The position numbers were made by a program, and so were the translations under genes. A stretch of DNA of 37,733 nt from assembly GCF_003334355.1 (NCBI RefSeq), contig NZ_QOWP01000034.1. One strand, given 5' to 3'. The notes below the pieces were generated by a model, which did not search any database, was not told the origin of the DNA, and saw only the letters and a program-made list of their open reading frames with translations. Position 1 is the first letter of the stretch; every line of letters begins with the position of its first letter. This DNA is from Escherichia coli. Lineage in GTDB: Bacteria > Pseudomonadota > Gammaproteobacteria > Enterobacterales > Enterobacteriaceae. This document shows, one piece after another, positions 26,185-26,508 of this stretch.

Positions 26185-26508
26185 TGAATAAATCATCACT
26201 AATTCTATAAGTGTCTGGTCTTGTTGATAATATAGTTAATATGTAACCCTTTAGATTCACGATCTGAAGGGTTGAAACATGACATACGTTCAAAGATTAA
26301 CCCTCGTTTGAAGGTTAGCTTGTTAGTTACATTTAGTAACACATATCTGGCTACTTAATCCCCATTCTGCCCCCGCGGTTACGCTTTCTTATCTATTCTT
26401 TCAATCAGCACTTCACCCAATTCATCCTTAATTCTAATAACTGGCTATTGCGCCTTACCTCGTGTTTTGTCTTTTTTTCATTACCAATGTGTGCATGTGA
26501 GGAACAAT

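Follow-up and report, generated by a model that had tools for sequence, protein, structure and literature searches.

The narU gene of Escherichia coli is preceded by a 324-bp gap that runs from the stop codon of a leucine-rich repeat (LRR) open reading frame (ORF) to the narU start; it occupies positions 26185-26508 of the 37,733-nucleotide stretch of contig NZ_QOWP01000034.1 analysed here, which we call the window. The gap is a junction of two unrelated pieces, the right end of a strain-variable islet (26185-26322) and the ancestral promoter and leader of narU (26323-26508). An initial annotation had picked out three short dyads and a repeated AACCCT motif in it. One dyad is a known regulator site, that of OmpR, at a known target; its position is now fixed to the base, and its conservation shows that it is ancient. 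Another is a single-copy 3' stem-loop of ordinary type within the islet; its connection with an adaptive mutation is intriguing but unproven. The remaining dyad is a chance match. The region is largely already known or ordinary, and we consider the explanation below, taken as a whole, likely to be correct.

The narU side of the gap holds the following features.
26323-26345, plus strand: OmpR binding site, tandem decamers TTAGTTACAT and TTAGTAACAC, containing GTTAC-N5-GTAAC at 26326-26340; upstream edge of the conserved narU control region (block A).
26386-26400, plus strand: second invariant block (block B), TT.TTATCTATTCT (TTATCTATyCTT), a predicted extended -10, 48±1 nt after GTAAC.
26392-26400, plus strand: the predicted extended -10 itself, TCTATTCTT, with hexamer TATTCT at 26394-26399 and C at -13.
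26412-26438, plus strand: proposed alternative sigma-70 promoter TTCACC-N15-TCTAAT, from the selection with RpoD holoenzyme (systematic evolution of ligands by exponential enrichment, SELEX) of Shimada et al. (PMC3946193).
26499-26511, plus strand: narU ribosome-binding site GAGGAA and the ATG at 26509, from the RefSeq annotation of an identical locus (L001); GAGG and ATG are invariant.

It had been stated that regulators acting here are not obvious, and that the dyads could be operator sites. The first statement is out of date, since OmpR is a published activator of narU (PMC5438342). The second holds for GTTAC-N5-GTAAC, one of the three dyads, on the strength of a published OmpR peak and a 47-fold drop of narU mRNA in ΔompR (PMC5438342). 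The peak, P10 for narUZYWV, was obtained by chromatin immunoprecipitation with exonuclease digestion (ChIP-exo); it lies at NC_000913.2 1542224-1542283, has a signal-to-noise ratio of 14.8 and was classed as activator (Seo et al., PMC5438342). In the same study narU gives 38.1 fragments per kilobase per million in the wild type and 0.81 in ΔompR at 0.3 M NaCl, which is the 47-fold difference, and narZYWV are down by log2 3.0-3.9 in ΔompR. Transferred to the window, peak P10 maps to about 26310-26370, centred within a few bases of the OmpR site. For this transfer we take the offset between versions 2 and 3 of the reference coordinates to be ~1975-1977. The same procedure places the ompF peak on F1/F2, and the coordinate given by Shimada et al. 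for this spacer is consistent with it.

The first decamer, TTAGTTACAT (26323-26332), matches the OmpR motif KWWGTTACAT (PMC5438342) at 10 of 10 positions, the only such match in the window, while the next, TTAGTAACAC (26333-26342), matches it at 8 of 10. The tandem half-site pattern GTWACA-N4-GWWACA is found once, at 26326-26341, against 0.01 expected per window; the same bases also form the inverted repeat. The site agrees with ompC C1 at 15 of 20 positions (p about 0.01) and with ompF F1 at 14 of 20, the ompF F1-F3 sequences having been verified in MG1655. With the published OmpR repeat GTTACATTTTGTTACAT it shares 14 of 17 positions, and none of 300 shuffles is as good. The regulators suggested earlier, NsrR, Fur and IHF, give consensus matches at chance, with 0.88-1.0 of shuffles as good, and the same is true for FNR, CRP, NarL and ArcA; all of these scans used plain consensus sequences and not curated weight matrices. 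GTTAC-N5-GTAAC is therefore an OmpR site, and a pair of tandem 10-bp repeats describes it better than a dyad. Phosphorylated OmpR would bind the tandem decamers at 26323-26345 and activate narU transcription.

The comparison with the porin promoters shows both likeness and difference. The OmpR sites F1-F3 of ompF and C1-C3 of ompC are 20 bp long and consist of two 10-bp half-sites, [G/T]xxAC, and the narU site likewise consists of two decamers 10 bp apart. It is also alike in its in vivo OmpR occupancy and activating effect (PMC5438342). Where ompF and ompC have three contiguous 20-bp sites, narU has a single one. Further, the narU half-sites differ from those of the porin genes in being at the same time a perfect inverted repeat of 5 bp, unchanged from genus to genus, and the promoter that they serve looks sigma-S-type and belongs to a respiratory operon, not a porin.

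The phylogenetic footprinting that had been proposed for the narU upstream region singles out the same bases. A scan of 100,044 species genomes with NarU gives orthologs (>=81% identity) in Escherichia albertii, Citrobacter, Pluralibacter, Atlantibacter, Enterobacter, Leclercia, Lelliottia, Klebsiella, Kluyvera, Pseudocitrobacter and others. In an alignment of 21 sequences from >10 genera (55% mean column identity), the sole invariant non-coding columns besides the ribosome-binding site are TTAC, GTAACA and TT.TTATCTAT.C.T. Over 29 narU loci from >10 genera TTAC-N5-GTAACA is invariant, and the third dyad is invariant within E. coli too. TTATCTAT follows GTAAC at 48 nt in 24 of these loci, at 47 in 4 and at 49 in 1, while the sequence between is unconserved; the distance to the narU ATG varies from 99 to 114. 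TTAC-N5-GTAAC is present once per narU locus, and among non-narU loci one match was seen (L060). The OmpR site and its fixed 48-bp spacing to a sigma-S-like -10 are thus conserved across Enterobacteriaceae. It has been suggested that OmpR control of narU is possibly unique to K-12 (PMC5438342), and the deep conservation contradicts this suggestion.

The invariance also bears on another reading of block A, that it is primarily the operator of a different, dyad-symmetric regulator of the Enterobacteriaceae, or that OmpR binds it inverted (head-to-head), the tandem resemblance being partial. All 29 loci have GTAAC as second half and none has GTTAC or GAAAC; what is conserved is therefore the perfect inverted symmetry TTAC/GTAA, and the 5-nt spacer is free to vary, as is typical of dimer operators. 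We nevertheless find this reading quite unlikely. OmpR occupancy and a 47-fold OmpR dependence are published (PMC5438342), and the two halves are not conserved alike: any of the four bases (G, T, A or C) can precede TTAC, whereas GTAAC always has its G and each AC is always followed by A. This asymmetry fits [G/T]TTACA and GTAACA direct repeats as in ompF F1 and ompC C1. Further, the other scanned consensuses are at chance, and where a TetR-family gene adjoins narU in other genera, the palindrome in the promoter region of that gene is a different one. Block A as an operator of that smvR-like TetR-family gene was considered separately and rejected on the same ground, and also because E. coli keeps block A without the gene. 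We therefore keep to the tandem OmpR site.

Downstream of it, block B provides a candidate promoter. Extended -10 elements of sigma-S have the consensus TCTATACTT, with C at -13 and a weak or absent -35. To this consensus TCTATTCTT matches at 8 of 9 positions, and the -35 region reads CCCCGC, with no recognisable -35 element. The narU start is predicted near 26406, which would put the OmpR site at about -80 to -61, where F2 lies at ompF. The narU and narZ genes of the NRZ system are reported to be RpoS-dependent (Chang et al. 1999). In addition, narU is in the Crl regulon (PMC6469107), and an extended -10 with the sigma-S signature, C at -13, would fit both the stationary-phase and the Crl dependence of narU. 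The narU promoter is thus like sigma-S extended -10 promoters in its 8/9 match with C at -13, in its lack of a -35 and in its stationary-phase and Crl/RpoS dependence. It differs in that its start is only predicted, and in that the hexamer pair predicted from RpoD-holoenzyme SELEX lies 40 bp downstream (PMC3946193). The region of that pair, 26412-26438, is unconserved outside Escherichia. Two further papers, PMC12742742 and PMC9266322, add nothing on narU regulation.

In Enterobacter, Lelliottia and Leclercia (L027, L033, L035, L036, L041 and L071, at ~3843-3885) a canonical terminator is found between the OmpR-like site and the narU -10 block. It has 12 stem pairs, 3 of them with compensatory changes, followed by a U-run, and is presumably that of the upstream TetR-family (smvR-like) gene, whose U-run passes into the promoter block. 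Escherichia is without the smvR-like gene, and the terminator has decayed there. RNAalifold gives no consensus hairpin between blocks A and B over all genera, and one within the Enterobacter group only.

The composite structure of the gap is seen directly when E. coli genomes are compared. The gene order in the window is yddG (23400-24281), the yddL porin remnant, the LRR ORF (24853-26184), narU (ATG at 26509) and narZ. A megablast of the gap against 5426 complete E. coli genomes gives a match in 5407, but at least 80% of the gap is covered in only 4236; the remainder match query positions 139-324, that is window 26323-26508, alone. The narU-proximal 186 bp (26323-26508) are carried by 5407 of the 5426 genomes and the other 138 bp (26185-26322) by 4279, so the islet-side piece is missing in ~21% of E. 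coli genomes, as it is in other genera. In a sequence type 131 (ST131) strain narU directly follows yddG: the homology to the window stops after AAATACCAG (24358) and restarts at TTAGTTAC (26323), with ~9 unrelated bases between the two blocks. B2 strains have the same arrangement, yddG and then narU directly, with homology starting at 26323. The two pieces also differ in how they vary. The islet-side piece is single copy, always lies 3' of the LRR gene and diverges along with that gene at 79-100% identity, while the narU-proximal 186 bp have only 4-12 differing positions among alleles.

The break points at 24358 and 26323 in ST131 define the islet, whose features are these.
24359-26322, plus strand: low-GC islet between yddG and narU that varies among strains; contains the LRR ORF and the remnant of the porin yddL, and corresponds to O-island 62 of O157.
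26238-26247, minus strand: lone predicted half-site GTTACATATT, an exact copy of ompF F1b; one match in the window against 0.02 expected.
26240-26281, plus strand: stem-loop, 56-97 nt 3' of the LRR stop codon, with a core stem of 12-13 bp (26245-26257 / 26261-26273) and no U-tract.
26245, plus strand: site of mutation T1538580C, which reads A to G on the sense strand of narU; it is the base that opens the 5' arm of the hairpin, 264 nt before the narU ATG.
26289-26312, no strand assigned: dyad TTCAAA-N12-TTTGAA with the second AACCCT (26299-26304) inside; chance matches.

The fraction of guanine and cytosine (GC) is 0.28-0.40 in the islet and ~0.5 in its flanks. The corresponding island of O157, O-island 62, has been described (PMC3079680). 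Both O-island 62 of O157:H7 and yddL-yddK-yddJ of K-12 occupy the same slot between yddG and narU, have low GC and contain porin and LRR (EspR1-like) genes (PMC3079680). They differ in the state of the LRR genes: the ORF in the window is intact (443 aa), the K-12 gene is frameshifted (yddK and pseudogene yddJ), and the O157 slot holds espR1, which codes for an LRR effector of the type III secretion system, and further LRR genes. The upstream neighbour of narU varies by lineage and may be an LRR gene, a porin, yddG or the TetR-family smvR-like gene. Whatever this neighbour is, block A is the start of conservation in every lineage, and this accounts for the islet boundary lying exactly at the upstream edge of the OmpR site. 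The coincidence would be explained if rearrangements are tolerated only outside the functional promoter.

Some rearranged loci deserve mention. In E. coli CE10 a 12-bp deletion lies exactly at the junction of islet and promoter (aligned to 26311-26322), apparently between GTTA direct repeats; it changes GGTTAGCTTGTTAGTTAC to TGGTTAC and leaves the OmpR site intact. In the avian pathogenic strain APEC 102026 (L004) only the 75 bp next to the narU ATG remain; an IS5-family (ISKpn26-like) insertion sequence and a rearrangement have taken the place of everything beyond. This removes both the OmpR site and the -10 block, and narU should therefore be expressed differently or not at all. E. albertii (L013, 2597-4000) has yddG, a full-length OmpC-like porin and narU, with no LRR gene, and the 3' flank of its porin has its own hairpin (GACCTCAA...TTGAGGTC). 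This layout suggests gain of the LRR genes by a porin-narU arrangement, or their loss from it. Within the islet, the frame of the yddL porin remnant is broken (ATG AAA TTA AAA TAG), and three direct repeats CGTTTA(A/G)A at 24485, 24496 and 24509 (spacing 11 and 13; region 24485-24515) lie just 5' of its ATG at 24541.

The initial annotation had called the gap palindrome-rich. The individual motifs are all present: AACCCTT at 26245-26251 with AAGGGTT at 26267-26273, TTCAAA at 26289-26294 with TTTGAA at 26307-26312, GTTAC-N5-GTAAC at 26326-26340, and a second AACCCT at 26299-26304. Perfect dyads with spacers of 3-20 nt are, however, as frequent as in 1000 dinucleotide shuffles:
arm of at least 5: 9 observed, shuffle mean 6.7, fraction of shuffles reaching the observed number 0.27.
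arm of at least 6: 3 observed, shuffle mean 1.8, fraction 0.29.
arm of at least 7: 1 observed, shuffle mean 0.43, fraction 0.28.
Elsewhere in the window there are 2.6 six-base dyads per 324 nt. The numbers thus do not support the label palindrome-rich.

The second dyad and the second AACCCT are chance matches. The fold of the dyad is no better than chance (z -0.76), and the dyad is not kept in other islet alleles, O157 having TACATA...TTTAAT, while the second AACCCT is broken in K-12, which lacks T26304. The doubt raised earlier, that the dyads might not be conserved among strains, is thus justified for this dyad; it does not apply to the hairpin, kept in 7 of the 7 LRR/islet alleles sampled in an alignment, or to the invariant GTTAC-N5-GTAAC.

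The hairpin is the sole dyad that stands out as a structure. The AACCCTT and AAGGGTT arms belong, as its outer part, to an inverted repeat of 12 nt (26245-26256 / 26262-26273) that is complementary at 11 of 12 positions with a 5-nt spacer, and the pattern AACCCTT-N10-20-AAGGGTT, expected 0.01 times per window, is found once. The plus-strand RNA folds with -18.0 kcal/mol (z -5.4; 0 of 200 shuffles fold as well) and the minus strand with -12.4 kcal/mol. Present in 4275 of the 5426 genomes, the hairpin has one copy per genome, at most 2. The seven alleles vary by an A-to-G change that on the plus strand, and only there, gives G.U, by two changes in the loop and, in JCH767, by one extra broken pair. 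The sole stem substitution common to several alleles is the one that gives G.U on the plus strand, and the loop varies. Between 0 and 2 changes are found in the 24 nt of the stem, compared with 12-24 in the 94 nt of the remaining islet-side gap. These counts are modest evidence for a constraint on the stem.

The sequence from 26185 to 26322 is the 3' untranslated flank of the LRR gene, and the stem-loop would be the 3'-end structure of its transcript. It may protect against 3' exonucleases, or keep read-through away from the narU promoter as a weak, non-canonical stop, or both. It is like intrinsic terminators and 3' stabilising stem-loops in being a stable, GC-containing stem-loop 60 nt 3' of a stop codon, more stable on the sense strand, with a conserved stem and a variable loop. 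Unlike intrinsic terminators it has no U-tract. The sequence directly 3' of the stem is GAAACAUGACAUACG, a terminator scan gives no match, and the 12-bp stem core has only 4 G-C pairs (3 C-G and 1 G-C); since the U-tract is missing, the hairpin is not a canonical intrinsic terminator. Consensus scans for promoters and terminators give no plus-strand site and two minus-strand promoter-like matches, below chance expectation. One sigma-70-like pair, TTATCA-17-TAGAAT at 26202-26230 on the minus strand, faces the 3' end of the LRR gene; such a count is below chance expectation. A search of 25500-27200 against Rfam with E up to 10 gives only a spurious microRNA model, at 22 bits against a gathering score of 79. 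A terminator in Lelliottia (L035, 3848-3878), on the opposite side of the OmpR site, has the same 7-nt arms, AACCCTT...AAGGGTT, as the islet hairpin at 26245-26273; the identity is probably a coincidence (rough p about 0.03-0.05).

It had also been proposed that the dyads are remnants of the insertion event behind the islet. This is true in a loose sense, as the first two lie in the variable yddL-LRR islet (26185-26322 in the gap), but there is no sign of mobile-element ends. The strict form of the idea, in which a mobile element brought in the islet and the dyads are its ends or the scars it left (for instance an att site, terminal inverted repeats or hairpins bound by transposase), is very unlikely. 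The hairpin does lie in a strain-variable islet of low GC, 50 bp from the right edge, and CE10 has its 12-bp deletion between GTTA repeats at the junction. However, no matching repeat was seen at the left edge of the islet, where no systematic search was made, the islet has no integrase or transposase gene, and the hairpin is single copy in every genome, with no match to Rfam or a repeat family. Further, E. albertii has yddG, porin and narU with neither LRR gene nor hairpin, which fits gain and loss gene by gene better than a single element. A dispersed repeat (REP/BIME, ERIC or the end of an insertion sequence) was rejected, as the hairpin is single copy per genome.

What ties this islet DNA to narU is a mutation. 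In BW25113 adapted to ciprofloxacin, Pal et al. (PMC11417348) found T1538580C, which they place 'upstream of narU' and for which they offered no mechanism. It was accompanied by up to 10-fold more narUZYWV mRNA and by higher green fluorescent protein (GFP) signal from a cloned fragment (PMC11417348). From the mutagenesis primer TATAGTTAATATGT[G]ACCCTTTAGATT, and from NZ_CP009273.1 1538580 corresponding to L010 2081, the mutation maps to window position 26245, and the reporter fragment to 26141-26519. It changes the third base of GTTACATATT, GT[T>C]AC. On the RNA it has little effect, with a fold energy of -18.4 compared with -18.0 kcal/mol, and an RNA-level effect as the main mechanism of A26245G was rejected, the fold energy being unchanged. 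By inspection, no convincing hexamer pair for a new promoter, nor a new CRP site, is made by A26245G. The mutant sequence has no full-length 48/48 match among the top-ranked matches in the 5426 complete genomes.

These observations can be read to mean that narU of K-12-type strains is under the cis-control of the hairpin region (26238-26273) itself, a distal negative site whose repression A26245G relieves. It could be a weak OmpR half-site (GTTACATATT, minus strand) or the operator of an unnamed repressor. A precedent is F4 of ompF, a distal OmpR site at about -380 to -350 that is needed for repression at high osmolarity. The islet half-site is like F4 in lying upstream of the main OmpR site and in that a mutation in it is reported to raise expression. 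It is unlike F4 in being one predicted half-site, 76 bp away, allele-specific and outside the ChIP-exo peak. The location of T1538580C at 26245, the increase in narUZYWV mRNA and in GFP from 26141-26519 (PMC11417348), and the mutated base in an exact F1b copy (0.02 expected) 76 bp from a validated OmpR site all speak for a cis-element, and as the mutation does not weaken the hairpin, an effect at the DNA level is more plausible than one on the RNA.

Against it, the half-site is single, and the adjoining decamer matches at only 2 of 10 positions. It is not conserved in other LRR alleles, where O157 has GTTGTATATT, CE10 has GTTGCATATT and the eco241-type allele a deletion, and it is absent from B2 strains and other genera, so it cannot be part of core narU control. 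The mapped ChIP-exo peak falls short of it, and the mutant sequence is without a full-length match among the top-ranked genomic matches. Further, the size of the reporter effect is not in the text of the paper, the cultures were overnight LB cultures of DH5alpha, and the orientation of the insert relative to gfp is unconfirmed. All in all, such an element is unlikely. The data nevertheless suggest, on thin support, that GTTACATATT may be a distal OmpR-related negative element, and that the islet-side DNA is not entirely neutral for narU.

Returning to the account with which we began, an OmpR site and sigma-S-type promoter next to an LRR 3' flank, several points weigh against it. The ChIP-exo peak is 60 bp wide, and it was mapped with a coordinate offset that was cross-checked only indirectly. 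An OmpR site built as a degenerate direct repeat would not be expected to have GTAAC, a perfect inverted copy of GTTAC, invariably as its second half-site. The promoter proposed by Shimada et al. is another one, TTCACC..TCTAAT at 26412-26438 (PMC3946193), and no narU transcription start is given by Seo et al. or in the supplements of PMC7815308, PMC3415461 and PMC4782308. For starts or 3' ends of narU, yddJ and yddK there is no entry in the supplements of PMC7815308, none in PMC3415461 and no coordinate in range in PMC4782308. As no published narU start was found, the -10 assignment is a prediction. The hairpin, having no U-tract, fails the terminator test; the 3' end of the LRR transcript is likewise a prediction. 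Finally, a plasmid with only this gap is reported to give higher narU expression when the hairpin is mutated at its first base (PMC11417348).

Two of these points can be combined into a reading with two unconventional OmpR features. The core site would act as a head-to-head inverted repeat, or be shared with a dyad-binding regulator, and in K-12-type strains the islet would contribute an F1b-like distal negative element, within the hairpin, that is lost in A26245G. We hold this combination to be improbable.

In clinical isolates, 'mutations' upstream of narU are reported in >70% of cases when mapped against K-12 (PMC11417348). There are several alleles of the gap, 79-100% identical, and B2 strains lack part of it. 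Because of these divergent alleles and the partial absence, such calls are largely lineage markers, and the clinical variation upstream of narU probably represents divergent islet alleles and not adaptive changes.

The idea that narU lacks an obvious regulator is thereby corrected: it has a published activator, OmpR, whose exact site can be placed at 26323-26345, and the two conserved blocks tell where to look for the narU start. T1538580C can now be assigned to a defined structure, as it hits the first base of a hairpin within an ompF-F1b-like half-site, and so becomes a testable question. If the reading with two unconventional features were true, A26245G would derepress NarU/NRZ during ciprofloxacin adaptation, and horizontally acquired flanking DNA would have rewired an ancient promoter.

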